Shown: positions 24,417-47,542 of the stretch, in pieces
How positions within the stretch are numbered: the stretch's first letter is position 1
Layout: each line of letters begins with the position of its first letter
NCBI GenBank assembly: GCA_965645245.1
Contig: OZ287070.1
Location: 1,178,001-1,242,000, forward strand
From: Massalongia carnosa
Lineage: Eukaryota
Direction: 5' to 3'
Length of the DNA: 64,000 nt
Made by a program: the position numbers and the translations under genes
Notes under the pieces: model-generated
Seen by the model: only the letters and a program-made list of their open reading frames with translations
Told to the model about the DNA's origin: nothing
The model's database searches: none

Positions 24417-27004
24417 CTAGCTGTCCAACCCCAATCCGTAAGCCTCAATCAACCCCAAGTCAAAGTCTATTCCTAGCACGACGTTTGCAATCTCGTCAAT
24501 CTCCCCCAACACCTGGTCGCGATCCATCATATCACCCCCTTCCTCAAAGCCTCCGCTCTGCAGTTGGGTGTGTGCCCATTGAACTGCTTGATCCATCGCG
24601 TGCCACTGCTCGAGATTGAATGGGTCGGGGGGGTGCGGAGCCCGCTGATCATGATAAGGGGGGGCTGGTGAGTGCTGGTCATCTTGGGCATCTGGCTGAT
24701 GTTGACGTGGCGGTATGTTCCCCATTAAAGGAACGCAAGCGGCTGCGTAAGAGGAAGATTCATCTTCAGGTTGGGAGAAGGAGAGCTGGCTGTGCATCTC
24801 TAGTAAGCCTTGCACTGCAGCGTCGGTATGGGCGTCGGTTTCAGTCAGCGTGGGATTAGGGTTATGAGTGAACTGGTACGGGGCCGAGGAAGTGGAGGGA
24901 AGCGTGTATTCCGTGTGCTGCGGTTCATAGTCTGCATCTTGTAGGGGATAGTATGAGTCTTTAGAGAGATATTCCTGGTGTTGTACGTCTACCACTGAAC
25001 CATGCAGATGGACGGTAGAGGCTTGAGCAGGAATAGGAAACTCTCCCGAAAGATATTCATAGTCTTGCAAGGAATACATCGGGTCATGAGAAGGATAATT
25101 CAAAACCTGCGTGTCATATGAAGGATCTTGCGAATGGGAAGCGTAGTCTCGGGGGCTATATATAGAATTGTGCGCCAGCTCGAGCGGCAAGATGGAGTTT
25201 GAGGTAGATGATGGGAACGAAGTTGATGTGGAGGATGGAAATGAACGGTAATCGGCCTCGTGGGGGGGAAGTGGTGAGCTAAACCGCGAATTTTGGCCCG
25301 CATACAGTATCTCTGGATTCTCCACGTACAAATTGGGCTGATGATTAAGATGCTCTGCGTACTGTGGGGTTGGGTGCAATAAGTCTCGGTGGAGTGCTGT
25401 GTCGATCGCTAAGGAAGGCTCTAGGTATTGGGAACTCGATGACGGATTGAAATAAGGCTCGGTCAAGGGAGCAGGTGGAATCAACTTTCTCCAAGTAGTG
25501 GTAGCAGCCTCATTATTTCGAGTTTGACGGAAATTCCAAAGAAGAATTGCCATCCGCCGAGGGGAGGAATGGCCAGCTCGAGGTTTTGCCCGTAGCTCCT
25601 GCACAACCGATATATCCTGGATGTGGCACGGCAATCTCTCTGCCTCGTGCTGTATGCCTAGGAAAGCTCCTTTGTGCTCTTTCTGTAGGTTTTCTTTGGT
25701 GAGAGCAACGAAAAGATCAACCCACCATTTGCTATGCAAAAGTACTAAGATCCTTGCATCCCCGGTCCCAGAAAGAAACTCAGACTCCGTTTGGGTGGAG
25801 AGACTTTCCGTCAAGATGTTATTCTCGTAGAATTTGGTATGGCACTCCCAGTCGGTATACTCTGTTCCTCGGACGATGTCAATGGTGAAGTCAATTCCCA
25901 GTTGCGATTTAAGAGGCGGATGATTTTCCATTAAATCCAAACTCGTCTCAAACAAAACAAGTTCACCATCAAGCTCGCCTCGATCGTAATAAGGAACAAG
26001 CTGGGGATATGTCATTCGCCAGCCATTCGCTTCTTCTAAAGCCTTGGAAGCAGTTCCTATTTCGCTCTGCAACGAGCTATAAATATGAAGTTTTTCAAGT
26101 AGCTCCGGTTCAAGGAGATACATCTCAAACTTGATTCGACGGATTGAATGTGGCTGGGGGGGTACACTAGAGTCTAATATGCGACGAGGTAATTGGTTTA
26201 GGAAAGTGGGATGTACATCAGGTACTTGTCTGTCTAAGACCCTGCTGCCACTCTCAGCTGCACGATCGTTTGTACCGGTTTTTGTTACAAGAGCCATCCC
26301 TGAAAGGTTAGCCATAGCTCTATAACTGTGTCGTCGAGGGTACGAGAGCATACAAGCATGATTATCTTTCTGAAAGTTTTTAAGAACTTGTATGTGACTT
26401 GAGACTTGTTTCCGGCATCGCGTAATGCCTGTATGCCATTTGATAAAATGCTCGATGTGTTCATTCCTCCCACATGGCCTGGTTCCGACTCTTCCACATT
26501 GATGGGGAACACAAAGAGTCTTCCTTCTGCCAAGATTTGGTATTTTCCGCAACGCTAAATGAAGATCAATGCGAGCGGTCAAGGTTATGAGTTTTCTCTA
26601 TAAATACCTAATTGAAAGGCCTGCTCTAATTCATCGGTCCATTTTTGCTCTTCGCCGGATTTCTTATTTTTTAAGCGTTGCTTTTCTAGGTAAGCAAGGT
26701 ATCTATCTGAATGAAGCTCGGCTTGGGTAAAAATAGGATCGGGAGATCTGTGACGTCGCTTCCTTCGGTCCTGAATTCGTGAAGTAGTGCCATATCCATA
26801 TCTCTGAGGATGTGGTGTAGGAAGTGAAGTCGGGTTTAAAACACGGGAGGTTGATTTGCTGACTGCAGGAGCGAATTCATGGCTGCTCAGCCCAAAGTTC
26901 CCAGATCCCACTTTAAGAGCCCCTCTCGAGCCTTCCGGACTTTGTCCTGGAGCTGGAGCATTGGAAGGTAGCACGCACAGACTACGTCGAGGCTCCATGA
27001 CCAT
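24417..27004 (-). CDS. TEA/ATTS-domain transcription factor (AbaA/Tec1-like; 3 exons)
   Basis: KWTDELEQAFQL-ALRKIPNLGRRK...GRNE..I...TG.TR.RKQVSSHIQVLK is a TEA domain. Introns 26555-26607 and 26300-26353. Confidence 0.88.
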
Positions 27005-27650: not shown

Positions 27651-30500
27651 TCAATCACGCTCGGAATCGTCCCCTCCGTCTAGGTTGAACTTTTTACGGC
27701 CCGAGCCAGCCAATTTTTGCAGCGCAACCTTGTTAGCCTGATTTCCAACTTTGTTTTGCATCTGTTCTATCTCCTTTTCCGGATCCAGCGCATCTTCAGC
27801 GGCGAACTCTAATACCAGCCTCCTTCCCAATAGATGGGTATCTTTTAAAGCTCCTATAGCGTTCTCGGCTTCTCTTGCGGTCACGAATTCTGCAAATGCA
27901 AAACCTCGTGTTGAGCTATCGAATTTCTTAGGCATACGTACAGACCGTAGTTTTCCGTACGAGCCAAACAAGGCTCGAATGTCTTTTTTCGATGCTTCGA
28001 AAGGTAGATTCTTGATAATAATCTTGGTCCTCCTGCCTGCAATTTTCTTTGCTTCATCAATTTTACGTCGATCTTCCGCAGCACACACACCTTTATGAGA
28101 CGCTCTAATAAGGAGGTTGTGCCCATCAAGCTTATATCCATCCATAGCCGCCAACGCCGCTTGTGCTTGCTGCTTAGATCGGAACTCAAGAAACCCAAAT
28201 CCCATGCTTAGGAACTGTCCAGATTTCTTCGGATCCGGTTTCATCTTAACTTTGGCAGACATGAAGCCATCCAGAGATTCGAAGGCCTCACGCAGCCGTT
28301 CCGTGGTGCTCAAAAAACTGAGATTTCGGACGAAGAGCGTTGACGTATCTACCGTGCCATGCGAATCATCCACCTCAAGCAAATCGCTAGACAAAACCTT
28401 TGCACGTTGGGAGCTCTCTAACTGAACCTCTCCTGTGGCCGTTCGAGATTCTGTACTATTAAGTAAAAGTTTTGGCGCCTTCTCTAGTAGTAATACAGAG
28501 TCCTTGAACTTTCTATAAGCAAGACTTCGAAAAGCTGATCGTGCATGCTCCGCATTTTCAAACTGCACAATGGAGATAGTACCAGCAGGAGGCATGAGCA
28601 CTCTAAGAACGTTACCGTGGACTTCAAACAACTTTTTCAGTTCCTCAGATTTAGTGCCATAAGCAAAGTTTTTGACAAGAATTGCGGTGTCGCCCCTCTC
28701 TCCGTTTTTGAAAGCATCCAAATTAACACCATTAGTGGTAAAATATGCTTTTGTCTCTTGGATAATATGTGTTTCTGCATGAGCTTGCTTTATTGCAGCA
28801 TTAGAGGACATAGGATCTAGCAGTTCTGACTTGGAGATACCAAGCCGATCTGAAATGGAAGACATGACAGCGTCGGCCTTCATGTAGGCTGTCAGAGACA
28901 TCCTCTAGACATGGTCGTAGGATGTCTACAACTTACGTTCATATACAGCGAATTCCATTTGAACGTAGCTGATGCAGCTTCCGCTTTTCGTTTGATATGC
29001 TGTTGTTTCTTCAGAGGCAATTTAGCAATAGCGAACTCATCTAATACACTCTGCTTTCTTGCAAGAGCAGGAATGATATGCAACAAACGGCCTTGGAATG
29101 GTTTTCCGTCTAGGATTTGGAGAGCATTATTTGCCGATTCTATATCAGGGTATTGAACGTAGGCAAATCCTTTACCATTTCCCGTTCGTGAATCTACAGC
29201 AAGGTGCACCTAACAACAATCAGTATTGACACTTTTGTAAGAACAAAGCAAAAATTTATACGCAGCATGGAACAGGTCATCTCAGGTAAAAGAAGCATCT
29301 ACTAAAACACTCTTCCTGTTAACATCATATGCATACATAAGCTGTCCCTATCAGGATATTCATCATTGACCAAATCGTAAACTTGTAGCATTTCTGGGGG
29401 AAAATTCATCCTGCTTACTTCTACGATAGAATTCGGCTCAGCACCCTCGAAATGCCTCCTTAGGTCTTCCTCCGTAGTTGTGTATGATAGATTTCGTACA
29501 AAAAGGCGTCTAGACGCTGCGCTGAGTTCGTTGCTGATATCTAAGGGTGTATTTGGTATGGACTCTCTCGTAACTTCAGTCCTTTCGTCGGTCTGAGAAC
29601 TAGGATCTAGAAGTCTTCCGTTGAGCAATCTGGTAGCGTTTATGGACCCCTCGGATATCTCCACCTTGTCTCTTGTAAGCTCATTTGCTGACACCAGGAT
29701 ATCTTTATCTTCGACTAGCCCTAACAACCTGTTGGTACGTGAACGCAACCAGTCTTCGTCTGATGAGCGTGGGCCCGCAACCTCTGGCGTTTCAATTTTC
29801 TCCGCAGGAGATGGAGTAATGCTGGCAGAGATATCTAAAGTTTGGGGCGATATCTCAACTTCCTCAAAAGGCTCGCTGTCTTCCTTAAACATGCGAGATT
29901 TTTGGGGCTTTTTGGGTACAAACTCATACTCTTCGTCCTTTTGGATTTCCTCGACTCTCTGAGGAGCAGGGCTTAAAGGATGATCGTTCTTAGTCTTGCT
30001 TCGTGCCAAATCTTCATTTGCCCATATCCTAGATTTTGATGGTGGTTGCATAACCTCAAGATACTCTTGAAGCTTAGCATTTTCACCCTTCAAATCGACC
30101 CGCTTGCGCTTTCCCAGGCTAGATTTCTCTAGACCATGATCAGCAACGACCGACGGCGCTTCACTTCCCCCATTGTCTGGTAATGGCTTCAAGGTTCTCT
30201 GTTCGTTAACCTTTACGGGAGGGTTTATTAGAATGTATATTACGGTCATATTAGAATTACCTCAGACATTACCGGGCGAGCCACCTCGACTTCTATTCTC
30301 GTTGTTCGAATAAAGGTCTTGTTATAGTATTTGACAGCCTTTGCGGCATCTTCAGGGCTTTTGAAACCAACATATCCTATCCGTCTGTGAGGTATACATT
30401 TGGCGTCTGTGATCACTGCTTGCTTTGAGAAATGCTTTCGAAACTCGTCAGACGTTAGATTAGGAGGTAGACCGCGGACAAAAATCCTCGAAGATTCCAT
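27651..30500 (-). CDS. MRD1: Multiple RNA-binding domain protein 1 (five RRMs, pre-rRNA processing; 4 exons)
   Basis: SRIFVRGLP..RRIGYVGF; RLFVRNLSY; DGKPFQGRLLHI; WNSLYMN-ADAV; QAHAETHIIQE; LSMGFGFLEF; KIIIKNLPFEA; HLLGRRLVLEFA. Confidence 0.96.
29275..29371 (-). ncRNA. Intronic box C/D snoRNA, snR64/SNORD74-like
   Basis: Inside MRD1 intron 29210-29418: terminal stem GGTCA/TGACC, box C ATGATGA (29366-29360), guide GATAGGGACAG followed by D' CTTA, C' ATGATG, box D CTGA (29285-29282). The guide is complementary to LSU rRNA CUGUCCCUAUC (rRNA sequence recalled, not searched). Confidence 0.85.
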
Positions 30501-30779
30501 ACTTGAGTGCGATTGATTGCGTCTTTGTTCTTGATGTTGCGCAAACGCGGTTTACACAAAATAACAGAAAAAATTTCCGTGCATACGAAAATGGAAAAAA
30601 CCTTCTTCCTGAACGCGCTAGCTCCCTTCGATTACGGAAAGCTAATAAACGCTAGCTCCAGGCCTCCGAGCTCTGAGTTCTTCCCCACGCACAATACCGA
30701 GCTTAAACCTTTCTTATCAATCCGGATCGCTTCACTACCAAGCTTCATGTCAACATCCAACGCTCCGGCCCCGGCAAAG

Positions 30780-32085: not shown

Positions 32086-34461
32086 CTAAGACACATGGGT
32101 CACTTCTCCCCCACCAACCTCCCTCATCCCCTTTGCCCCCGAACCCCGACCCTTCTCTCCCTCATCTTCCTCCTCCACCACAGCAACAATTCCTCTTCCC
32201 CCTCGTCCCATCAAATCTCTCCAGATCCCCAGAAACGTATGTGAAATGCTCCCCCTCCCCTCCCAGAGCGGAAACAACCCTACACAAAAGGCGCTGCCAA
32301 ACAGCCATAGTATTCCCACAACCACCCAGCCCGTAAAGAAGCGCTTGCTAAAAACGTAAGCCGTGCCATAGAGGGGCATGGGCCAAAGGATCAGCAGAGC
32401 TAACGTTAAGAATGCTGTAAGGGATTTGGCGATGAGGGAGGCGTGGGCGAGGGCGGCTTGGTCGAGGTTATTAGTGGTGGAAGGGGGTGAGTTGATGATA
32501 GGGTTGGTGGGTAAGGCGTTCATAGATGGGGAAGGAGATTCTTTAGATATGGGAGACGAGAGCTCCGGGTCGGAGGAGGGGAGAAGTTCGGAGTCGTTGG
32601 CGAGGCGAATTTTGGCCATGGAGGCGTAGTCATAGGATTGTGGGCCGAAGGCGTACGTGAGGATGGGGATATAGAGAAGAGGAGAAAGAAGAGCAACAAC
32701 GTTGCCGGCTAGCATAGGGTTGCTGTAGGTAGCAAGATGCAGGGTTAGCTTGAAGGTTGAGCTTTGGATCTTTTTAAAAGGACTGAATGGAGACGGCCGT
32801 GCGAAACGAGGTTACGGTGACTTACTTGCTGCCGGTGCTGTTGACGGAAAGGCTCCCGAATTGCCTCTTTGCGGTTACAAGCCAGGCGGTGAGAGAGCTT
32901 GCAAGACCAAGGATGGGGGAGAGGGTGGCAGCAATGGTGTTTTGCTTGCTCCACATTAGGGTTAGAGTGGCTGGGAGGACTGCGGAGCTGATGATGACGC
33001 CCATCATTAAGTATAGATAGCCCATTGAGATGCCGATATCTTCAGTTTTAATGGTTATTAGCAGTGTTTAGGAGTTCACGGATTGAGCCAAGGATTTACA
33101 GTATAAGCCCGTAGAGAAGGCAGCTAGCAATATGGCATACACCACAACGCAGGTGTGGGCCATGTATATAAGCATTTTGCCGCTGGCTCTCGGGTTGTAA
33201 TATGTCTGGTATATATCGTAGGTAAAAATACTGCTGACAGCAATGTATTCCGCTGAACTAGCTGAAGTGACGGCCATGAAGACGAGCAACAACGATGCAA
33301 CGGCGCCACCCTTGCCGAGAAGAGCCACTGCAGCATCGGGAAGGACAAGGCCAGCGGTGACGTCTACATCCGGCATACGTAAAGGGAAGGTTGGGAACAC
33401 CGGATTCGTCTCCAAGGCTAGAGCGGAAAGACCCATAGTTGTAGCTGTAAGCCAGGGAATCGCAAACCAGCTGAGGCCCCCCATTACGTATCCTGGGAGA
33501 GCATGGATTGGGCTTGCTGCGATGGCTTTATTGTAATAGCCTAAAGATATTGACATCAGTGCGTGAACATGGTGATGATGGGGAAGGACTGACCGTTGTC
33601 ACAAAAGACAGTACCAAAATTACCCACAATATTGATAACAAAAAATATGGCTCCTTCCTTTGATCTCATAGTGAGATAGCTGCCTTCTGCATTCCCTTTC
33701 ACCGGGTGCCTTTTCCCTGCTTCAACTAAAAGATCGTAGACTTTGCCTGGACTTCCCAGGTTTACGTTCGTCGTGTAGGCCGTGAATGCAAATATCAAGA
33801 TGATGATGAGCAGCATAACAGTATGAACTATAGCACGTCAGCTTTATGGAAGATACTGTTACTGTAATAAATACGCGCCATAGTCGGTAAGAAAAGTTGC
33901 CTTGATACCCCCGAAAATCGTATACATCACCACTCCCACCGGTAGCAAGAAACAAGCTGCCGCAGTAGGCATACCGGTCAAAGAATTCACCACAGCAGAT
34001 CCACCGGTAAGCAGCATAGCCGTCACAAGGATGTTCGTCATCAAACCAAAGACGCTGAATACGAGATGCGTATAGACCCCGTAGCGCGCCCTGATGACCT
34101 CAAGAAACGTATGCGCATTCGGGGCCTTCCGCTTCAACTCGATGGCCAACGTCGCGAACAGCAAGATCTGTACCGTGGCGCCAGAAGCATACCAGAACGG
34201 ACCCGAGACTCCATAGCGATAGGCGACGCCGGATGACTGGAGGAGCGTGGCCGCCCAGGTCCATGAGGATACGACAGCCGAAGCTACTAACCCTGACTTG
34301 ACCGTTCTCCCGGCTGTACTGAACATTTCCGAGGTTTGCACCTCATTTTGGTATCTCTTGAGAACCCAGGTAGTGAGGATCATCCCAAACGCGAAGAGGA
34401 ACCCAAGGCCAAGAACTACACCATAACCCACACCTTGGCTCAATGGTGGTTTCAATGCCAT
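32086..34461 (-). CDS. DUR3: Urea active transporter (DUR3/UreA, sodium:solute symporter family; 5 exons)
   Basis: [94 protein letters not shown]. First intron is GC-AG. Confidence 0.96.
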
Positions 34462-34668
34462 CTCGTGCAGTTGACCTAGAAATGCAAATATAGAGTTGAA
34501 GTGGACGTAATGAAGGAAGAGACGTCTTTAGAAGGTTAAGACGCTTTGTGGAACCGTATATGCAGACTCTCCCTAGTAGAAACAGAGACGCAGGAGCCCA
34601 GCCGGCACGATTCTCAACGGCAAGGAGACACGATTAAAAGGAAAACACAACTAGTTTTAACAACTCTC

Positions 34669-34867
34669 CTTATCGACTTGTTAAGATATGTGGTACGACA
34701 GGAGAGCTTTCCCCGGGATACCCCACGCCTTCCACCCCCCTCAGCTTTACACATCCCCCCCGACGTAGCACCCAAACGTAAGGACGTTGCGGTAAGAAAC
34801 AACCCAAGCTTTTCTCGTAATGGTAATCGATCGGATTGGATCATGCATCTTTATCATCAGTGATAAG
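34669..34867. promoter_or_regulatory. GATA (AreA/Nit2-type) sites upstream of DUR3
   Basis: CTTATC 34669-34674, TTATCA 34851-34856 and TGATAAG 34861-34867 (close opposed pair). Fits known nitrogen regulation of urea transporters. Confidence 0.55.
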
Positions 34868-35443
34868 GGAAAGTTGTGTAGTACAGTATATGCTTGTAGA
34901 TCGGAATCCAGAACCTGACGGGAAGTAACGCTTTGGTGGCATACTTGGCATACCCGAGCACACCCCATGCATATGCATTCCAAACACTCAAGACTCGCCA
35001 GAAAGCCAAAGTCTTTGATGATCATATCAGGCAAAACTTATATAGAGATTTCAGAATCATCATGAGTCCGTAATCGAAAATCTATAGCACTATTATTAAT
35101 ATCAGCCTAGCGAAATAGAAATACAATACAGTACGATACGAGCACACCCCTTGATGCCCATTGCTGGGACAACTGTATCCCTATAGAGAGGTCATTCGCC
35201 TTGTTTCCAACCAATGAAGCCTGAAAATAAGCAGACATAGCCACTCAGAGCCTGAAAAAGCCCGCTGAGCTTCTGCCATACCCATTAGCCTAACCATATA
35301 CCTAATGGTGACTCCCAATTCTTCAAGCTCCATTCCCTACGACCATGCCCTCCCACGAATCTTCTACCTCGACCTTATAGCTCCCAGCTTTATGCAACTA
35401 TTTTATTTGTACTGCGGTCCGCCCCCCGGACCGGCATATCCCC

Positions 35444-36173
35444 CTAGGGGGGCCCCTGTCCGGGACCCTTCCCACCGCCAGTACCTTGAATGAGGTTTCC
35501 AGCACCCGGATGCTGTGATTGGATATCCGGCCGCATACTGTTGGCCGTCCTCGCGATTAGCGACAGTCTCGTCATAGTTTGGCTGCTTCGGTAAAGCGAG
35601 TAAGTTGGGGGACTAAGTGTCAGCCCACCTTAGGTCTTGTGTGAAATGGCAGATCGGGCATGTCACTTCCTGCAAAGGCTGAATTAGCAGCGTTTGCTCA
35701 CACCGAACTCTTTGCGCTGAATAGCAGGATGATGTAGATCTACCTTGTACTTATGAGTCGAAAGAGGGATCAAGGGCTGGGGTATATACAGAATTAGCGA
35801 CTTCGTTCATGATTGAAACCCAAAAGCTGCAGGACAATCATACCAAAAAGCAGATCGTAAAAAAAGGCCTAAGATTCTCCTCCATTAGCGCTCATCCTTG
35901 TACATTGACTTGTCCATAACCGCTCCATACTCACCACCGCGTAATGCAATGCGCCGACCAATTCCCGCCTACTCTTACCATTAGCAATCTCTCTTCCATC
36001 GATGCATAAGCGCGCAAAACATTCAGTTGTTGCATTGTGCTGTGACGCCTTCGTAGCCTTTAAGCTGGGAGCTGAAGTCTATGCATAGGTTAGTCTTGAT
36101 GCCAAAAAGCCCAACTTCAAACCTTAAAAGGGAAAGAATTACCATGAGTGCCAAAGGTGATACAGAAAAACAT
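35444..36173 (-). CDS. Small zinc-ribbon membrane-associated protein (UPF0768 / zinc_ribbon_15-like), 7 exons, absent from ORF track
   Basis: Exons 36143-36173, 36025-36078, 35935-35968, 35844-35868, 35744-35776, 35629-35669, 35444-35537 give MFFCITFGTHDFSSQLKGYEGVTAQCNNCGNWSAHCITRWPFFTICFLPLIPLSTHKYKEVTCPICHFTQDLSMRPDI..GQGPP* (103 aa; CxxC-hydrophobic-CxxC). Needs a GA donor at intron 2. Confidence 0.8.
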
Positions 36174-37189
36174 CACAAACGTTGAGCTTAGAGCAGGACT
36201 AATTAACTCGAAGGAGGGAGACCGAGGAGGATTATTCCGAATATCGATAGCTTTTTTTATGAAGGGAAACGGCGGCAATGCTGAATGACACGCAATCAGG
36301 GTTCGTACTCACGTGCACCAGTTCATGCAGGTAGTTAGGCTAAATTAAGCGTGCATAACAAAAATACACATTTTCTTAATGCACGGACTTGACGCCACGG
36401 CAGGAAGTCAGCGTCAGATTCAACATCTTGAAAATAGTATGATCTTCGTGTAGCGAACGGGAGGGTATAAACCCTAAACCCACAACAACTTTAGATTCTC
36501 GAAATCCATCCAACATAAAAGCAGGGGGTGAAGGCCGCAACACCCCCTTTGTTACCTTAGCTACCTAAATTACCTAAGGGGGAGCAGATATTTTCTGGAG
36601 CCTTCAGATGTCACTGCACTGCTTTATCCGATCACGTTATTTAGGAGGGAGTGTTGGAATGCATCGTTTCGCTTGCGAAGTAAGCAAGTACTTACAGTTC
36701 GGACGTAGAAGTAGAGTTCGAGAAGCTGTTGCACCGGTAGAATCCGCCTCTAGGCAGTAACGACCTCGATATAAGGAATACCGGGACTAAATATGTTTGG
36801 GAGCAATTCACACTTTGTAGAAATTTGATCATAGAAAGCCAGTCTCGTACGCAAAGTATCTCTAGATAGGAATGCAAACGCACTTTCCTACCTCTTCTGT
36901 GCAAAAAGCTCATAGCAATAAAAAAATAGTACTACCCGTATGATTAACATACTGTCACACGTACCAAAGAAACTCTCTGCCTCAAAGGGTGTTTTAAACT
37001 TTTTTGGGGTTTTTGGGTTTCTATAAAATGCTAGCTAAGATGTAGGTGTAGTACGGGCTGCAGAGTACGCGCCAGCGAGGGCTCCCTACAAGAGGTGGAC
37101 CTTGCCGGGAGGATTTGCTCTACTCTGCAGCCCGCAAAGAAGAAAATAACAAGGAGCAAAACAGCAAAAAAATAAAAAAGAAAAAAGAA

Positions 37190-37191
37190 AA

Positions 37192-37223
<32 letters not shown>

Positions 37224-37229
37224 AAAGAA
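37190..37229 (+). repeat. (GAAA)n microsatellite in an A-rich tract just 3' of the large minus-strand gene
   Basis: Visible AAAGAAAGAAAG... run. Confidence 0.85.
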
Positions 37230-37230
37230 A

Positions 37231-40200
37231 CTAGAGACTAGAAAAAACAACGTAAAAAACCACACAGATAGCCGCAGCCAGAAGACCACAGCACACCCCC
37301 CCCACCACAAACGCCAGCTTCTTCTCCTCCCCCCCAAACCCGTCGATCTCCCCCTCCGTATGCCACGCCACGATGCCGTCCATTAAGCCGGCACCGAGGA
37401 CAATGAGCATTGGGAAGCCCACGATTGAGAGGGCGAGCCCAGCCACCCAACGCCGCCCCAGGGAGCGCTGCCACTCCCGCGCTTGCTCGTAGTCCAGGCG
37501 AGGGACTCTGAGCAAGTGCGGCGACTCGGCGCGCGCAACCGGGAACGGCCTTGACCGTGGCTGGGCCACTGGGCGCGAGAGGCAGACGGAGACCGGGCGG
37601 GGAAGGTCGGAGTAAGCATCCACTGCCGTGTGTACGGCAGAGGACAGGTCCACCAGCTCAAAAAGTCCAGCATCAGTGTCGGAGCGGGAGCGGGCTCGCA
37701 AGTTCCCGGCGGGAGGACTAACAGGGGCGGCCCTTACGAAGTGGTGCTCCTCTGGCCCCATGTTGATGACCTGATCCCCACTCGCATTGCGCCGGCGTGG
37801 TGATCGTTTGCGGACCTGGTGTCCGGGAGTGTTGGGCGCAATGAGAGGGGTTGCCCGAGAACCCAAGCCGAAAGAAGCAGGTGAGGCAAGACCGGTAGAT
37901 GAAGATGACCCTCCCTTTGTAATAAGCTCTAGCGGCACGGAACGGCGGTTTTCTTCGCTAAGTGGAGGTTCAGGAAACGCAGGAAGGAGCTGGTGGTCGA
38001 CAAGGTGTTGACGGTGTTTTCGAATCTCGGGTGAAAGTTTGTGCTGAGATTGAGCCAAGAGCAGAGATTCATGCTCTTCGCCGAAGAGATTGATGTCACG
38101 GCTGATAGGATACTTCCGGAGGCGTTCGTTCAGTGCTTGGCTCGAAGCTTGAGATTCCTTTGGATCCATGCTACCATGGATCGTGCGTCTCTGAAGTTTC
38201 TTTGCTGAATGTGAGGCAGGGTGTTTTCGAGGTGATGGTGTTTGAAGCAGAGCGGAGTTTTCGCCTTGTGATGATCGGTGGAAAAGTGATGATGGCTGGC
38301 TAAGTGGCGAAGGTTGGCCAAAAGGTGAAAAAGCTGAAGGTTGTGAAGGTTGTGAAGGTTGTGAAGGTTGTGAAGGTTGTGAAGGTTGTAAAGGCTGGTG
38401 ATAGGGTGAAGCGGGTGAAGGTTGGTGATAAGGTGAAGAGGGTAAAGGTTGATGAAAGGGTGAAGGTTGGTTAAAGGACGAGGTTGGACCAAAAGGTGAA
38501 TTTGCCGTAACGAGACTACTTGCATCGGCGAGGCTACTCCCCATTTGACGCGCTCCTGTACTAGAATCAGGAGTGCCGGTTAGATTAGCCCTAGAGCCTA
38601 ATCTGGCGATCTTGGAGAAGCGTCCGCTGCGGAGATAGCTCTCAATTTCAGTCTCGTTAGAATCAGCTGCAGCCGGCCGTCCATCAAGAGTACTCAACCA
38701 CGCCGATGATAGATAGGAACGTTGTTTTCTACCACCGTTACCACTACGATTTAATATTTCTTCACGTCTATCTTCTTCAGTCTCTCGATTTCCAAGTGCG
38801 AATATGTTAGCCCGAGATAATGGGGAAGTTCCTTCTTCGTTATTCGACGTGTCTCGTGCCTTACCGTGACCTGAACTTGGTGATCCTAGAGTCAAACGTG
38901 ACGATCTGTCGGACAGCGGAGAGACAAGCGCTGAGGTTCGCAGAGGCATTGACAACGTGAATGGATTAACATATTCAGCAGACAATGGCGATGGATGTTT
39001 GTGAGAGCTACCTCGGGTGATTACGGGCTTCGACGCTTTGCTAGGACGCAAGTATACCTCGCTAGGTGTCTCACAATCAGGTCTTAGCATCATGTTTCCA
39101 CTCAGACGATTCTGAAGCAATTTCCAGGTATGTGTATATCGAGGATGATTGAGCTGTGGAAGCACAGGTTCCGCTGATGATACTCTAGTCATCTTCGAGG
39201 GGCTCAGGCTTCCAGAATCGGAATTGTCCGCAAGACTACTCCCGGTGCCTGCCTGAGCGATAGCGTCCAGCACGATCTTCCGGTTGAAACTTATACTATT
39301 GGCTTCCGTCTCCCAGTCCCGATCATCCTCGCCCTCCCCGGCTGGAGCGAGGCGGCTGCTGTTGCTTTTGAGCTTTGATGCTGAAAGAATTTGAGCTAAC
39401 CGACCATTGCTTCTGGACCCACTTAAGGTTGACTTAAATGAAGGTTCTTCGCTCATATTCACCCTACCTCTCCCATACAAAAGAGGTGGGGTACCACTAC
39501 GATACCGTGATGGGCGATGTTCATCCTCATCCTCGTCATAAAATCCCAGTCGAGCTTCACGACCAGAAATAGCTTCGCGATAGTCACGGCCGCGCCGAGA
39601 GGAGTGTAACTCAAGACCGAAAAAGGACGAGCCTTGGCTGCTTGTGCGGCCTACTTCTTCAGCCCGAGTATCAGATTGCGAATAAGACATTATTAGACGG
39701 CCGGCGGGCTCTAGTCCATCGCCTTCTACATCACCTTGCATATGGGCTTCGATATCATCCTCAATCTCTCGGACCTCAGATTGTGACAAAGTCTGAGAAT
39801 AGATCGAACCATCGGTGTCCACTATGGAAAGGCGAGCAACATTGCGGGTCAGATTCTGCCTAGAAGCATGACTGGAAGGCAGCCCCAACAAGTTGCTTAT
39901 GTTTCCATAAGGTGCAGTGTCCTGGGAATTCTGCTCCAAGGTTGATGCTTTGTCTCGAATAATTCGACGAGCTTGTATCTGTGATGGCAATGATGGGAAG
40001 GGAATGTTTGGTGGCCCTGTCAAAATTTGTGCCGAGCTGTCGACTACTGCCTCTGCCTCAAAACTACCACGTGGACTCCAGGCAAATTGAGATAAACTTG
40101 AAACATGCTCGGGATGACTGGTACTTCCATCTTGAGTATCAATAGCGTGCAAAATTTTGTTGAATGGCTGAACCTGGACTTCAGAGCCATCAATGTTCAT

Positions 40201-40968
40201 GTTTGGGGAGTTGGTGTTGTTGAGATGTGTGTTCTCGGCATAGTTGCGCAAACCATCAAAATTCAGGAATCCTGAAGCTTGTTCTTCGCCTGGAGACGAC
40301 TCGAGAAAGTACGACGCAACTGGTCCGAACTGATGCTGATCGTCGAGAGATCCTAGTCGAGACTGGTTGACGAAGGCTGTTTGACGAAATGGATTAGAGG
40401 AGCGCCCAGTGTCATTAACTGGAGAGCCAAGCTCTGTTGAGGAAGCTGAACGCCGATGTACATGAGTGCTGCTTGGTTTTGTGGCAAGTTCGGGCTTCGC
40501 TCCATGTCTAAATGGATCCATAAACACTCTTCGCTCAATACCAGGACCCAAGGATGGTGACGGAAATTTTGTGCCTATCTCTGATGGATCAATTTCTGGA
40601 GGCCGAGAAGGTACGGGAGGTGTCATTGGCGATGGCAAGCTCTGCAAATGAGAAGCATGCCCGCGAAAGCCAGTCTGGAACGAAGCACCAGGCTGAAAAA
40701 ACTCATGATCCTTCGAAACACTGGATAGGTTTGGAGACTTGGAGTAGCCAGGCGAATAAGGATTTGTGCTCAGCGCCAAACTACGAGCTTGAGCCTCGGA
40801 AGATATTGATTGTAAAGAAATCTGATTGGACTGGCTATTACCTGGATGACCTGTGATGGCTGCATAAGCAGTGGAGAGGTCACCGAAAACTGCCCTTGGA
40901 GCTCGTGGTCCTCTCTCGCTCTTAGATCTTGGCCGCTTGAACAATCCAAAGGCTGGGAAAGCTGCCAT
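37231..40968 (-). CDS. Large (~1245 aa) Ser/Pro-rich disordered protein with two C-terminal TM segments, function unknown
   Basis: Uninterrupted 3.7-kb ORF; first ATG at 40968. C-terminal RAESPHL..hydrophobic..MDG..W...GE..hydrophobic module. Confidence 0.8.
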   Translation of the reverse strand: MAAFPAFGLFKRPRSKSERGPRAPRAVFGDLSTAYAAITGHPGNSQSNQISLQSISSEAQARSLALSTNPYSPGYSKSPNLSSVSKDHEFFQPGASFQTGFRGHASHLQSLPSPMTPPVPSRPPEIDPSEIGTKFPSPSLGPGIERRVFMDPFRHGAKPELATKPSSTHVHRRSASSTELGSPVNDTGRSSNPFRQTAFVNQSRLGSLDDQHQFGPVASYFLESSPGEEQASGFLNFDGLRNYAENTHLNNTNSPNMNIDGSEVQVQPFNKILHAIDTQDGSTSHPEHVSSLSQFAWSPRGSFEAEAVVDSSAQILTGPPNIPFPSLPSQIQARRIIRDKASTLEQNSQDTAPYGNISNLLGLPSSHASRQNLTRNVARLSIVDTDGSIYSQTLSQSEVREIEDDIEAHMQGDVEGDGLEPAGRLIMSYSQSDTRAEEVGRTSSQGSSFFGLELHSSRRGRDYREAISGREARLGFYDEDEDEHRPSRYRSGTPPLLYGRGRVNMSEEPSFKSTLSGSRSNGRLAQILSASKLKSNSSRLAPAGEGEDDRDWETEANSISFNRKIVLDAIAQAGTGSSLADNSDSGSLSPSKMTRVSSAEPVLPQLNHPRYTHTWKLLQNRLSGNMMLRPDCETPSEVYLRPSKASKPVITRGSSHKHPSPLSAEYVNPFTLSMPLRTSALVSPLSDRSSRLTLGSPSSGHGKARDTSNNEEGTSPLSRANIFALGNRETEEDRREEILNRSGNGGRKQRSYLSSAWLSTLDGRPAAADSNETEIESYLRSGRFSKIARLGSRANLTGTPDSSTGARQMGSSLADASSLVTANSPFGPTSSFNQPSPFHQPLPSSPYHQPSPASPYHQPLQPSQPSQPSQPSQPSQPSAFSPFGQPSPLSQPSSLFHRSSQGENSALLQTPSPRKHPASHSAKKLQRRTIHGSMDPKESQASSQALNERLRKYPISRDINLFGEEHESLLLAQSQHKLSPEIRKHRQHLVDHQLLPAFPEPPLSEENRRSVPLELITKGGSSSSTGLASPASFGLGSRATPLIAPNTPGHQVRKRSPRRRNASGDQVINMGPEEHHFVRAAPVSPPAGNLRARSRSDTDAGLFELVDLSSAVHTAVDAYSDLPRPVSVCLSRPVAQPRSRPFPVARAESPHLLRVPRLDYEQAREWQRSLGRRWVAGLALSIVGFPMLIVLGAGLMDGIVAWHTEGEIDGFGGEEKKLAFVVGGVCCGLLAAAICVVFYVVFSSL
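38336..38389 (+). repeat. 9-bp coding tandem repeat (GAAGGTTGT)x6 encoding QPS repeats
   Basis: Directly visible; flanked by degenerate ~30-bp repeats (HQP..SPY). Confidence 0.9.
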
Positions 40969-43295
40969 CTTGCTTATCAAGAGGATTTGTTGAGATATTG
41001 AAACTGCGAAAGATCTAGTGCACCTCAGGGGACCTTGATACCCCCTGTCCTCAAAGATGATTCTTAGGGATCTAAGGAGATGGGTTGAATATGCAGCAGA
41101 TCACATATGAGTTCAGAGAGGCAACGCGGTTGAGATTACCGATGCAAGTCGGTTGCCTCTTGGGTTGATCTTGAAGGATGACGGAGGAAAAGTCAGACAT
41201 AAGATCAATTTTATAATCCAACGTTGAACTTACCAGTACGAAGAGTGCTACTATGTAGCTATGATTACCTGAGACTGGGATGATAATAGTTGTGAGTGAT
41301 CGCAAGATGGAGCCTCGGGTCAAACAAGTTGATACCAGGTGGTGCGACCGCACTGGTTTAAATAAGCCAATTTCTTATCATCAGCACCAAGTTGGGCAAG
41401 TTTTTCATGAGGAAGGTTACGTTGATGATGGAGAAGTGCGTTGGTCGGAAGGAAGAGTGATGCCGATGAAGCTGGAACAGGAAGAAACGACAGTGATGTT
41501 GATATTTGTGCAAAATCGAACCTCGCTTGTTATAGGATGTGCGAAGCGGATGCCCTAGTCTCCCTTTGCTGAGATCATGTCGACACCAAGAACGCGTCCG
41601 GCACAAGCCGGTTCAAGACACCGGCTTCAAGATGACCGTGTAGCGGTAGGTGTTTTGGATCACGAGGCAGATAAAGAGTGATCTTGAAACAAAGTAGTTC
41701 TGGTTAAAGGGGGATGTCTGAAGATATGAGGTGTGTAGGACTAGATCGCATCCTCCTTATTAGCAGCTGTGTTCCTTTCCGTAAAAAAGATCATCCCTGC
41801 CGAGACGCACACCGTCTCCTTTTTACCTTGCTCCTTTTTCAAATGCCTCTGAAGAGTTATTCTATGTTGTCCTAAGAAGCCACAACGGTAACGCGCGGTC
41901 ATTTCGGATCCCTCATCGCGATCTTAACAGCGGTTCAGGGATGAACTCTGAGGGATGAACATGGTGCATATGGGAAACTTCCCATATATAGTGTACTCCC
42001 TTTGAGCTTTCAGGGCCTTGGGTTACTAGGAGGGAATGTGATCAGCACTATTGAGCCTCGTCTTGCTCGACAGCCATACATTCTCGCCTGCCCAAGTAAG
42101 ACGAACGCTCTCATGCTGTTAGTCTTAGGAGGTAAGTACTCACTGGGAAGCATATGGTACTCAAAGTATCCCTTCTTCCAAATCTTACGTTCAGCCATTC
42201 AAGTGTATAGTTTTTCACGGATTAAATTGCACATGGCAGCGTAAAAGGCTTTATGATTGCTGAGTGCGAGGGGAATCCGACCAAACGGCTGAGTGGCTGA
42301 GAAGCTCATAGAGAGCCTTTCTCAATTTCTAAGAAAGGCATATAGCTGACCAAGAATACAGGTTGCCCAGGAGAAGCGACGTTGAGTATTTTACCACTTG
42401 AAGGTAGAGGATAAGTTATTGGCGTCAACCCGCAACTTCTCCTACGGGTAGAATAGAAGAAAATAAGGAGAGGAAGGAAAAGACTAGGAAGAACACAACG
42501 AAGGTGAGGAGGAAAAGAGAAGAGAGGGAGAGCAGGGAGTGAAGGATGAACGAAAGAATGAATGTGTACACAAGGGAAAACGGCACCAAATGGCAGCAAT
42601 GGTGCAAGGCCCGCTACTATGCGACATGGGAGGTCATTCGGTCTCGTCAATTACCTTCATCGCCATTGTCCTTAAGCGTACAGCGTTGTGCAACGAACTT
42701 CATTAGATATTACGGGCAAGGAAAGTTGAACGTATTGTGTGAGCAAATCACACCAAGTAGGAGAATGAGAAACGAGCGGAGACAAGGGTCGTCAAGTCTG
42801 ACTTCTGCTAAATCGCAGCCGTCCTCGGGAAGGATCCTCTCTTCCTTTGTTCCTGGTCATCTAATGCTCCAGGCTTTTCGCGCAATGTCTTCAGCATAGG
42901 GATTCAGCGTAATTAAGCGTGCGGATTAGAAATCCATATTAACCAAACTTTTATCAACAGACCTACCTGGTCGTCATTCCGCAGCCCCTGCAAAGCATTA
43001 TGGGTGTCAATGTCAGGATTTGGAGGGCTTTTAGGACTTGGTTTACGAAAATCCCCGGGATAGGCGGGAAAGCGAGGCACAGAACAGGTCAATAACGCAA
43101 ATCAATTCCATGAATGATACTGTTCGCAACGTCCCAATGAATACAAACGAACTCACTTGCAGTTTTCTCCTCTCGAGTCCCCACCATCCGTCTCATAGGT
43201 TAAATTTTGCTATTTTCCAAGAAGTCGCACAGGTGTGCCTGGCAAACCGGAAAAGAGAAAATTTTTGCCCAATCCACACTCCCATTTGTTAGCTA

Positions 43296-44633
43296 CAAGT
43301 CCCGTGCCAAAAGTCTGCGGCCCAACCCGTAATTTTCGTGATTTCGCGTTTTCAACTCATCAACCCCCCATCTTCCACCTCATCATTTCACCATGCTTCG
43401 TGCTTCTTTGACCCCCATAAGTGGTAATCGGCCTCGTAACACTGAATTGACGCCATATCAACGTGGTATGATTGTTGGGGCCCAGGCGTTGGGGCACACA
43501 CCGACCGAGATTGGGAAGACTCTTAATTTCACTAAATCGACCGTGCAGAGCACCATTCAGAAGCACTCAATTCGCAACGACGGCGTGTCTAAATCACGTT
43601 CTGGACGGCCTGAAGTGCTGTCAGAACGCGATCGACGTTATATCATCAAGCATGCACGAATCAATCCACGAATCACTTATGCACAAATCAAACTAGAAGT
43701 GGGGCTCGGCTGCAGTCGTACGACTATTTATCGGGCACTCAAACTGTATGGTTTAACCAACTGGGTGGCTAAAAAACGACCTTTATTGACGCCTGAGGTG
43801 GCCAAGAAACGATTGGATTGGTGCTTGCTGCGGCGTGAGTGGACTTTTGAGCAGTGGTCAAGAGTTATATGGTCAGATGAGTGCTCGGTGGAAAAGGGGT
43901 CAGGAAAACAGCGTCAGTGGGTGTTCAGATTGCCGAAAGAAAAATGGAATAAAGAGATGATACAACCTGTCCCCAAAGGCAAAGGAGTCAGTGTCATGGT
44001 CTGGGCAGCTTTTTGGGGAGATGACAGGTCAGATCTTTACAAATTGGCTCGTGATTTTGCTGCGAAGAAGATGGGGTACTCGGCGAACTCATATATGGAA
44101 TTATTGAACGATAATCTGCTTGGAATTTGGCAACCGGGCCTCATTTTCATGCAGGATAACGCACCTATACATAAGGCTAAAAAGGTGATGGAATGGTTCA
44201 ATGAGAACGGCATAGAGGTCATCGATTGGCCCCCCTATTCACCTGATTTAAATCCCATCGAGCACGTTTGGTATGTGCTCAAAAAGCTCGTCTATCAAGT
44301 CAACCCGAACATAGATTTGGTGATCGGCAGTGATGAAACTGTTCGTGAGGTACTTTGGAAAGCGTTAGAAGAAGCCTGGACGTTGATAGATGTGAAAATG
44401 ATGAGGAGGTTAATAGAGAGCATGAATAGGAGGATAAAAGCGTGTATAGCGTCGGAAGGATAGTATACTAAATATTAAAATTAATTTTTGGGGGAATTCT
44501 TGTTTAGTATGTATGTAATCATTATGTAAAGTTTCAAGACATTTCAGCAATCGTGACGTGGTTGATTGTTGATTGAATAGAATGATTGAAATGTTGGTGG
44601 GGTGCGGGGCCGCAGACTTTTGGCCTAGTACTG
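43296..44633 (+). mobile_element. Tc1/mariner (impala-like, DD34E) DNA transposon, 1338 bp
   Basis: TA flanks at 43294-43295 and 44634-44635. Imperfect TIRs share the core GCCAAAAGTCTGCGGCCC; transposase inside. Confidence 0.92.
43393..44463 (+). CDS. Tc1-type transposase
   Basis: HTH N-terminus with RSGRP, WSDE, QDNAPIH and WPPYSPDLNPIEH; 34 residues between the second D and E. Ends EG*YTKY*, where GWYTKY would be expected. Confidence 0.93.
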   Translation: MLRASLTPISGNRPRNTELTPYQRGMIVGAQALGHTPTEIGKTLNFTKSTVQSTIQKHSIRNDGVSKSRSGRPEVLSERDRRYIIKHARINPRITYAQIKLEVGLGCSRTTIYRALKLYGLTNWVAKKRPLLTPEVAKKRLDWCLLRREWTFEQWSRVIWSDECSVEKGSGKQRQWVFRLPKEKWNKEMIQPVPKGKGVSVMVWAAFWGDDRSDLYKLARDFAAKKMGYSANSYMELLNDNLLGIWQPGLIFMQDNAPIHKAKKVMEWFNENGIEVIDWPPYSPDLNPIEHVWYVLKKLVYQVNPNIDLVIGSDETVREVLWKALEEAWTLIDVKMMRRLIESMNRRIKACIASEG

Positions 44634-44923: not shown

Positions 44924-47542
44924 GGGAACGGATAACAGGACACCACTTTGGTTAGATAAACACCACCTCCGGTTAGATAAACACCACCTCCGGTTAAGTA
45001 AACACCGCTAGCCCAGGTAGGGTAGATTCCTCGGCCCCGTCCGCCTTCTTCCCCTTTTAGGTCTAGCAGTCCACATCCCAACATTGACACCTCAAGAAAA
45101 AATTCAATTCAGCTTTCAACCATCGATTACTAGACATTGGATTTGTCGATTGGCACTGTCTTCATGAATCGCACCCTTTATTTGAAGCTTAGTAATGCAA
45201 ATCAGTTGATTGGAGCCGCATTCGCTGCATCCCCGCCAATTCCATCTGCTGCATCCACGCCAATCCCGTCTCCCCTTCCTCGACCAGCTCTGCCTCGACC
45301 AGCCCTAGCCCTAGCTCGGCCAGTCCTTGTGTTTGTCTCAGCTCTTTCACGAATCCCCCCTCCCCCTCCTCTCCCTCCCCCTCGTCCTCGCCCTCGCCCT
45401 CGCCCCCGACGTCCTACCCTGCCTGGTGTAGTATTGGCTCGATGAATAGCTCGTTCCACCTCCGGAGCTATTGCATCAGCTGTTTCCATTTCAACCCGTT
45501 CGAATTGAGATGGTAATCGATGAGTGGAATTGTCAAATGCCTCCGCTCGTCTGTTTTCCGCTCCCTGAGGGCGACCACGAGGTCGGGCTATCTCCGGTTC
45601 CCTCACTAGAAGAAGAGGATTAATCAAAGCAATCGGAGGGGCGCGCTTTTCCAACCTTGAACTGTTGTTAGTAGCTGATCGCTGACCATCGATCAGATGA
45701 CAATAACCTACTTCCAATGCGGGTGCACATCTTCCAATTTCAGACTTCCTTCATTCTCGAATAATCGTTGCTGAATCAGATGACTACAAGGCAAGCCGGT
45801 GATGGTAGTGAAGACGTTGGTACAAGCTGGAATAACAGTCGGTCTTCCTGTTAATAACTCGTATTGGTGTAGAATCTTTTTCAGGGCATAGGGACTGATA
45901 AATGCTCTCAGTTGCTGAAAGATAACTTTGCGAAGATGAAGTGGAAAACGTGTTCTGGCTTCTTCAAAAGCAATCAGATGATCATGATACTGATTTGTTA
46001 GTAGCAGATTAATGCCGTCAACTACCAGCTTCAAATCTCCGGTCGATGATCCTAATTGACGTTTTAATACTGCATGTGCGCCTTCCGCTCGCGACGTTAC
46101 CGTTGTCTCAAAATGCAGCACCTTGTTGGTGTAGCATGCCACGAAGCGATCGCGATGATTATCAATGTAGGTGGACTTCAAATATCGAATACAATCTTCA
46201 TGAGAAGTCATATAGGTAGCAGAAAACTGCTCCCATAGCTTCCAAAATTGAGGCTCGGTTGCTGCATAGATCACTGATTTCCAATCTGACAAAAAGATCT
46301 TCCATTCCTCATTGTCGAAAGATTTTTTGCACTTTGTCAACACATTCTGATTGATGTGCCAGATGCATAGCAAATGATTGATATTTGGAAAGACTATGGA
46401 AGATACCAACATTAATCCTTTCTCCATGTCGGACACGAGAATAATCGAATCAGGAAGTTCCAATCGAGAATACACCTCCTTCAATTGCTGTAAAGCCCAG
46501 ATGTAGTCCTCTGCTGTCTCCGTGATCAGAAAGCAAAAGGCGACATAAAAGGTAGTATGTAGCGCGGTTTGTCCGCCTGATGACGAGAAGAGGCATTTTG
46601 TATCGATTGGTCTTGTACGTGCAATCCATAATGAGAACTTCATGATTATCTATCAGAAGAGTTTGGGAACTGCCCTTGATGAAGAAGAGATGCGTAATCT
46701 GCTGATGAATGTCTTGTTGAAAGTTGTACACCCAATCCTTTTCGTCAAACTCACGAATCAATGCCTGAATAGGAGTCAATGGTCCCAAGACATCACGTCT
46801 CATCTGCGCCTTTAAGTTGTAGATGTCCCGAGGTTTAAACATCGGATTCACAATGATCTCGGCATTGGGATCATGAGGACTGAGATCTGCATTCACATCG
46901 GGAACACGCAGACTAGACAAAACCTTTGACGCCGACGTTTGTACTGTTAACTGTCTGGTAACGTCATCCTTTACACCGGTCAGAGCGATTTTTCTCAAGG
47001 CAGGATGAGAGCCAGCAAGACTGGACGGATGATTGTGTGTCCCATTTACCACCTCCAAAAACCACACCTCGTCGTCCATTTTGGCTGTCAGGGCAAATGG
47101 ACAAGCAATTAGTCGACTGCTGGTGTGCCGACGATCCTGACCCTGCGGTTCTCTGACTTTTCCACCTCGGTCGCATTTTAACCAAGCTTTATTTCTCACT
47201 CCCAGCTTGGTTTTCTTGGTTCGAAGAAGCACCACGGCGTAGCCTTCGGGGGCGGCATGCTCATTGACTCTAAGCAACAGGTCTTCTAGTGAGGCAAAGG
47301 ATTGACTATCTTCGGGAGGTCGAAGCGGCATGACGACGTGGCGGCGGCAGGGTGCCTGCAGATCAAATGTGAAATATGAGTGCAAGGATGAGGTGCAGGT
47401 AGAATGTGGGAGTTTCAACCGCTAGACCTAAAAGGGGAAGAGGCGGGCGGGGCCGAGGAATCTACCCTACCTGGGCTAGCGGTGTTTACCTAACCGGAGG
47501 TGGTGTTTATCTAACCAAAGTGGTGTCCTGTTATCCGTTCCC
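44924..47542 (-). mobile_element. Mutator-like (MULE) DNA transposon, 2619 bp
   Basis: Long TIRs starting GGGAACGGATAACAGGACACC (left ~44924-45066, right ~47423-47542); 8-bp direct repeat TTTATTTA at 44916-44923 and 47543-47550. Confidence 0.93.
45202..47331 (-). pseudogene. MULE transposase, frameshifted
   Basis: FAR1-like N-terminus (CDRGG..CPF..HNH), MDCTYKTNRYKMPL, D.EKGL, LLCIWH, TSRAEGAH, GLPCSH..HW. Extra G near 46577 (ATCAGGCGGA); one intron near 45660-45712; C-terminal GRGRG repeats. Confidence 0.88.

Follow-up and report, generated by a model that had tools for sequence, protein, structure and literature searches.

The gene described here occupies positions 36173–35444 on the minus strand of a 64-kb window (the whole stretch of DNA that was analysed). 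It is flanked on one side by a urea active transporter gene (34461–32104, minus strand) and on the other by an open reading frame of 1289 aa with no Pfam match (37231–41100, minus strand), the downstream end of which adjoins an A-rich microsatellite of the (AAAG)n type (37160–37225). The window also holds a multi-RRM RNA-binding protein gene (27651–30551, minus strand), an open reading frame with a TEA/ATTS domain of the transcription-factor type (24417–26597, minus strand), a Tc1/mariner-like transposase reading frame with HTH_Tnp_Tc3_2 and DDE_3 domains (43342–44463, plus strand) and a transposase reading frame of the MULE/Mutator type (45708–46649, minus strand).

Over its first 200 residues the urea transporter is 95% identical to proteins named from Pseudocyphellaria aurata and Peltigera leucophlebia. 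Because no identical urea transporter is present in a collection of 5.8 billion proteins (the best match there is 95%), the genome is seemingly not annotated in that collection. Taken with the presence of the gene in a lichen metagenome (run X4, below), the transporter matches point to a lichen-forming ascomycete whose proteins the collection lacks. At 33820–33876 of the minus strand, where the window has a 51-nt GT–AG intron with stops, the Pseudocyphellaria aurata protein P0002 has about 18 residues; judging from this comparison, the annotation of P0002 probably reads through an intron.

A gene of seven short exons for a putative zinc-ribbon protein

Seven exons (31, 54, 34, 25, 33, 41 and 94 nt) and six introns (64, 56, 66, 67, 74 and 91 nt) make up the gene, with introns accounting for 418 of its 730 nt and a coding sequence of 312 nt specifying a protein of 103 aa. 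Exon 1 (36143–36173, with its ATG at 36173–36171) ends in phase 1 and offers the sole phase-1 GT donor that goes together with an in-frame ATG and a 10-residue peptide resembling the N-terminus of the protein family described below. It replaces an earlier exon 1 at 36326, and its adoption raised the score against the family profile from 118.0 to 127.9 bits. Two models with this earlier 5' end, both using the donor ATGAACTGGTGCAC|GTGAGT, were rejected: with the acceptor at 36079 the model is out of frame, and with the acceptor at 36123 it is in frame but brings 19 N-terminal residues that find no alignment in the family. Intron 1 (36079–36142; GTAATT...CTAAC...ATAG; phase 1) corresponds in position and phase to intron 1 of two related fungal contigs, L001 and L002.

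Exon 2 (36025–36078), exactly at which family homology began in a profile comparison of the earlier gene model, ends with the T of a split Cys codon, and exon 3 (35935–35968) opens with the GC that completes it. Between them lies intron 2 (35969–36024; GAATGT...GCTAAT...GAGTAG; phase 1), which has GA–AG borders. The remaining introns follow in close succession: intron 3 (35869–35934; GTGAGT...GCTAAT...TTAG; phase 2), which is absent from L001 and L002, where a single exon spans its site; intron 4 (35777–35843; GTATGA...GCTAAT...CCAG; phase 0), between exons 4 (35844–35868) and 5 (35744–35776); intron 5 (35670–35743; GTAGAT...GCTAAT...GCAG; phase 0); and, after exon 6 (35629–35669), which carries the second CxxC of the protein as CPIC, intron 6 (35538–35628; GTGGGC...GCTAAT...ACAG; phase 2). 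The extent of intron 6 was compared with the earlier exon 1 still in place, and the 91-nt version scored 118.0 bits, a 46-nt version 110.0 bits and a model with no intron 99.4 bits. The coding part of exon 7 (35444–35537) encodes a G/P/Q-rich tail as in the family and terminates at TAG (35446–35444); a putative poly(A) signal, AATAAA, can be read from the sequence at 35402–35407, 37 nt after the stop.

Scored against a profile of 84 related proteins, the 103-aa spliced product reaches 127.9 bits (E = 1.5e-41), with profile positions 14–118 covering residues 1–101 and no gap at any exon junction. When introns 1 to 6 are retained in turn, the scores are −0.8, 23.5, 44.3, 59.9, 83.9 and 109.2 bits, and thus every exon adds to the match. 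Five of the 23 minus-strand GCTAAT motifs of the 64-kb window fall within 35561–35985, a clustering matched by 10 of 20,000 random placements. A loose intron pattern is by itself unspecific in the window, with 89 matches for GT, 121 for GA, 77 for GC and 99 for GG. Codon usage in the earlier gene model, which had the wrong N-terminus, does not resemble that of coding sequence: it scores −0.033 bits per codon, where coding chunks average 0.187. The frame of the same model stayed open in 160 of 20,000 shuffles. Measured against the profile match, the codon-usage and shuffle signals and the unspecific intron pattern are outweighed. By homology, then, the hidden zinc-ribbon gene proposed in a preliminary description of this DNA is genuine.

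Several other readings of the region were tried and set aside. The regular spacing of GCTAAT does not reflect a repeat array, since the region has no tandem repeat, just short two-copy repeats; a snoRNA host or another known RNA found no support among Rfam families (0 matches in 34000–37500); and a suspected frameshift in the tail gains little, since read-through by way of an X adds 2.0 bits where a control frame adds 1.1. Beyond the stop, at 35395–35447 of the minus strand and beside a G4C6 run, a different frame ends like the family C-terminus (...QY followed by K and a stop).

Searches with pieces of the gene yielded little. Five unspliced fragments of the window matched 0 Pfam families, no candidate came from a word search in which the exon-6 stretch was compared with proteins of 80–2000 aa, a degenerate exon-6 pattern had 0 matches in metagenome contigs, and a protein atlas search gave no usable match. 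The lone HMMER match of a 40-aa exon-2 stretch was to a repetitive 529-aa protein matched in six stretches and was judged spurious. What is gained here is an annotation: a conserved gene for 103 aa, divided into exons of 25–94 nt, would escape ORF finders and probably gene predictors too.

Family relationships of the encoded protein

The two fungal contigs L001 and L002 came from a scan of metagenomes with a 49-aa stretch, free of stops, that surrounds exon 2; over the 18 residues it encodes, exon 2 is 72% identical to them. The related genes (L001:2169–2670 and L002:2903–3386) have two introns only, and window exons 3–7 correspond there to one uninterrupted exon. With that exon of L002 (3108–3383) we recovered 84 proteins of approximately 110–125 aa from Leotiomycetes, Sordariomycetes and Eurotiomycetes, and these are the proteins from which the family profile was built. 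Relative to L001 and L002, introns 3–6 of the window are extra; an insertion that two proteins, P0186 and P0191, have exactly where intron 4 lies in the window looks like an intron that was read through.

In blastp comparisons the window protein is 49–59% identical to its relatives over about 95 residues. Its two CxxC pairs consist of C26 and C29, preceded by 25 residues, and of C63 and C66. The second pair is invariant in the family (C in 84 of 84 rows at each position), and the two positions of the first pair are C in 66 and 65 of the 84 rows, with 11 and 9 rows gapped. All eight residues that are invariant in an alignment of 40 members (A1: M1, G8, P49, P52, L53, C63, C66 and R75) are kept in the window protein. 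Up to residue 78 it differs from the family at 13 of the 34 near-invariant positions, and the conserved GW and MxY are missing from its tail. From the alignment, this divergence could be a matter of lineage distance or of an earlier relaxed constraint.

At a threshold of E ≤ 0.01, 37 of 40 relatives match Pfam PF17032 (Zn_ribbon_15), the best with 2.4e-06, and several relatives carry PF17032 as a precomputed annotation. These matches are at the margin: the first family member scores 25.8 bits, below the gathering cut-off of 28.9, and the one large exon of the L002 gene obtains 18.1 bits, that of L001 17.9. On the basis of these comparisons the window protein is a member of a filamentous-ascomycete family of about 120 aa at the edge of PF17032. 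It is colinear over its whole length with family members that carry the label 'Zinc-ribbon 15 domain-containing protein' (for example P0156, from a metagenome, and P0194, from Cladophialophora chaetospira according to its source) and shares their layout of a CxxC, a short hydrophobic stretch, a second CxxC and a G/P/Q-rich tail. It differs from the family in having six introns against the two of L001 and L002, a shorter tail and the GA donor of intron 2. Some relatives are called 'Rhodopsin family protein' or 'ribonuclease P complex subunit' by their sources, labels unsupported by the evidence we found, and within the library searched no paper mentions PF17032, Zn_ribbon_15 or 'zinc-ribbon 15'.

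LITAF (PF10601) was considered as the family and rejected, with 0 of 40 relatives matching it at E ≤ 0.01. As excerpts of PMC5142333 describe it, the LITAF or SIMPLE-like domain resembles the window protein in that its Cys pairs flank a hydrophobic stretch, but this stretch is 22 residues long in LITAF and about 13 in the window protein, and the proline-rich part of LITAF is N-terminal whereas the G/P-rich part of the window protein is C-terminal.

A PDB sequence search gave 0 matches to solved relatives. The AF2 model of the relative P0156 has a mean pLDDT of 60, with 70–83 in the core; a Foldseek search with this model of mean pLDDT 60 gave no match at E ≤ 0.001. In a VIA-align comparison with the same model the best Z was 3.2, and the zinc ribbons of TFIIS, Rpb9 and Elf1 obtained Z values of 2.6–3.1, tied with unrelated folds.

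The GA donor of intron 2 and a GT counterpart

Read along the minus strand, exon 2 closes at 36025 with ...CAA TGC AAC AAC T, giving the flank ACT|GAATGT, and GC GGG AAT TGG stands directly after the intron. Removal of 36024–35969 joins T to GC in a Cys codon and restores the motif CNNC-GNW; at the conserved position of the Cys so completed, 65 of the 84 rows of the family have C and 9 are gapped. The branch A, within GCTAAT, lies 12 nt before the 3' end of the intron. If intron 2 is retained, TGA follows directly after ...CNN and the product ends after 28 aa, with a stop at codon 29. A U12-type intron was considered and rejected, since on inspection there is no donor of the ATATCC or GTATCC type. 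At the level of the bases the preliminary description has proved accurate: it had read a 56-nt GA...AG segment that brings in a TGA if kept, with branch site and acceptor intact, had found the other five introns to be GT–AG, and had pointed out that exact removal of the segment completes a zinc-ligand Cys codon.

That description had also allowed for an assembly error at position 36023, the +2 base of the donor. The stretch is present in five of nine listed sequencing runs, and we compared the contigs of four of the nine (X1, X3, X4 and X5). Three carry the A. The X1 contig (41 kb, depth 429, from a run that may be the assembly's own source) shows no difference from the window, nor does the X3 contig (depth 870), which comes from another sample of the same study, nor do the X5 contigs (depth about 9), which come from another study and bear another organism label. 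An assembly error is thereby excluded. The X5 contigs have loose ends at 35358, 35771, 35853 and 36127, three of which fall at GATC|GATC (35771 and 35853) or GANT|ANTC (35358), and X5 looks like a proximity-ligation (Hi-C-like) library. Because its joints have this appearance, X5 may stem from the genome project of the assembly itself and cannot safely be counted as independent, and the three GA carriers may represent one individual or clone.

A third study supplied the fourth run, X4, which is a lichen metagenome. A single 29-kb contig (depth 25.7) is 99.6% identical to the window over 1301 nt, from which it differs by a 2-nt insertion and five SNPs. Position 36023 is among the latter: here the window, X1, X3 and X5 have A on the minus strand and X4 has T (T versus A on the plus strand), at a depth of 25.7 of 25.7, and the X4 donor is thus the canonical GTATGT. 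All five SNPs are intronic: two are in intron 2, two in intron 4 (35821 and 35830) and one in intron 5 (35722). The exons of the GA and GT haplotypes are identical. The chance of such a distribution is about 0.06, and we take it as a weak hint of exon constraint.

We consider it highly improbable that the A at 36023 is after all a sequencing or assembly error, or that the X4 contig derives from a paralogue at some other locus. Rare variants are lost from Logan contigs, and X1 is possibly the assembly's own data, both of which would leave some room for such an account, but the absence of any difference from the window in three runs of two studies, at depths of up to 870, speaks against the first version of it, and the single X4 contig, spanning all 1301 nt at 99.6% identity, indicates the same locus and so speaks against the second.

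At the matching junction both L001 and L002 have a canonical GT–AG intron (TGC|GTAAGC...CAG|GGG), so that GT is found at the corresponding donor in three of three comparators (X4, L001 and L002). In the neighbouring urea transporter gene, four of four introns backed by homology are GT–AG as well. Because of these three comparators and four introns, the most plausible reading is that GA is derived, by a T>A change at +2, from the donor of an ordinary GT–AG intron; this polarity draws on one conspecific contig and on two distant relatives in which the intron is shifted by 2 nt. The reading of intron 2 as a conserved GA–AG intron is, on the same alignments, not supported, with GA absent from X4, L001 and L002. 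Among the explanations offered in the preliminary description, a recent mutation is the one favoured by the 99.6%-identical contig reading GTATGT and by GT in two of two distant relatives; the ortholog comparison it had called for found GT throughout.

The 2-nt offset is itself of interest as a side observation. Intron 2 of the window is in phase 1, inside the Cys codon, and its counterpart in L001 and L002 (L002:3066–3107) lies 2 nt downstream in phase 0, directly after the Cys codon, which makes this site a candidate for intron sliding.

Predicted consequences for splicing

The difference between GTATGT and GAATGT is the same hexamer change at +2 as that of the yeast ACT1–CUP1 U2A reporter (GUAUGU to GAAUGU). 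In excerpts of PMC10578475, U2A is described as leading to a build-up of lariat intermediates and as limiting the second splicing step. Since the change is the same, little correct mRNA is to be expected from the GA allele, bearing in mind that U2A is an engineered reporter in Saccharomyces and that the window GA occurs naturally, in an ascomycete of lichen type.

The data show the gene, the exact intron, the reality of the A and its polymorphism with T. On our preferred reading intron 2 is an ordinary GT–AG intron in the species and its relatives, and the sequenced haplotype carries a derived single-base change at donor +2, from GTATGT to GAATGT. For the consequences we argue by analogy with yeast. 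The first splicing step would proceed and exon ligation would stall, as with ACT1 U2A, so that most transcripts would fail to yield mRNA; RNA left unspliced would stop at codon 29, before completion of the first zinc ligand pair. With a probability that we put at roughly 70%, the GA allele would accordingly be a natural null or a strong hypomorph. As a splice-donor variant the GA site is of a textbook kind and ordinary as such; what makes the allele worth noting is that it probably knocks out or knocks down, in nature, a protein of the zinc-ribbon family.

A substitute splice seems not to be at hand. Among 42 frame-keeping pairs of donor and acceptor near the site (counted with the earlier 5' model) a GT donor occurs once: GTCACA at 36046 would be joined to the AG at 35991, and this pair has no branch motif. 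As far as the sequence near the site allows a judgement, then, no canonical substitute for intron 2 is credible.

It is also conceivable, but in our view unlikely, that the GA–AG intron is spliced well enough for protein to be made, in which case the GT/GA difference would be neutral or mildly hypomorphic. GA–AG junctions are reported from fungi, in agreement with the preliminary description, which called them a rare but real class: excerpts of PMC11590231 give 35 GA–AG introns among approximately 92,000 (about 0.04%) in Ganoderma lingzhi, and excerpts of PMC3577648 list GA–AG in the 0.31% of 'other' splice sites in Fusarium graminearum. Because fungi have such introns, if at a low frequency, the GA allele may give rise to some correct mRNA. 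The intact branch site and acceptor of intron 2, the presence of the GA haplotype in runs of two studies and the identity of the exons between the GA and GT haplotypes likewise count in favour of this reading. Against it stand the limitation of exon ligation by the same change in yeast (PMC10578475, as excerpted) and the want of conservation of GA in X4, L001 and L002. The immediate surroundings of the donor are also unfavourable. The human FGFR GA site is described in excerpts of PMC7072748 as efficient and as helped by a GT six bases upstream; at window intron 2 this helper GT is missing, and the exon end ACT brings no extra pairing with U1. Somewhat less likely again, in our estimation, is that the spliceosome tolerates the GA donor in such a way that the GT/GA polymorphism tunes the output of the zinc-ribbon protein and does not abolish it. 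If that were so, the species would offer a natural U2A allele on which proofreading of the second splicing step might be followed in the wild.

The preliminary description had put forward a further possibility, namely an inefficiently spliced intron acting as a switch through NMD; GA would then be kept on purpose, to turn the zinc-ribbon protein on or off. Retention of intron 2 does produce the layout that a switch needs, with a stop at codon 29 and four exon junctions downstream. A regulatory device should be conserved, however, and X4, the nearest relative sampled, and both of the two distant relatives have GT; with GA not conserved the switch finds no support, and we give it very little credence. 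The case carries a warning that a single non-canonical site should not be taken for a regulatory device before a population or outgroup check.

To return to the GA allele as a probable null or strong hypomorph, its intron can be set beside the GA–AG introns of animals. According to excerpts of PMC7072748, GA–AG introns abound both in Eurytemora affinis and in Oikopleura dioica, and the introns of these two species and of FGFR combine a U2-type GA donor with an AG acceptor, as does the window intron. The introns of FGFR and of the two species are fixed and conserved whereas the window GA is polymorphic with GT, FGFR depends on its GT six bases upstream, and in the animal cases AG precedes and A follows the GA, in contrast to the flank ACT|GAATGT of the window (PMC7072748, as excerpted).
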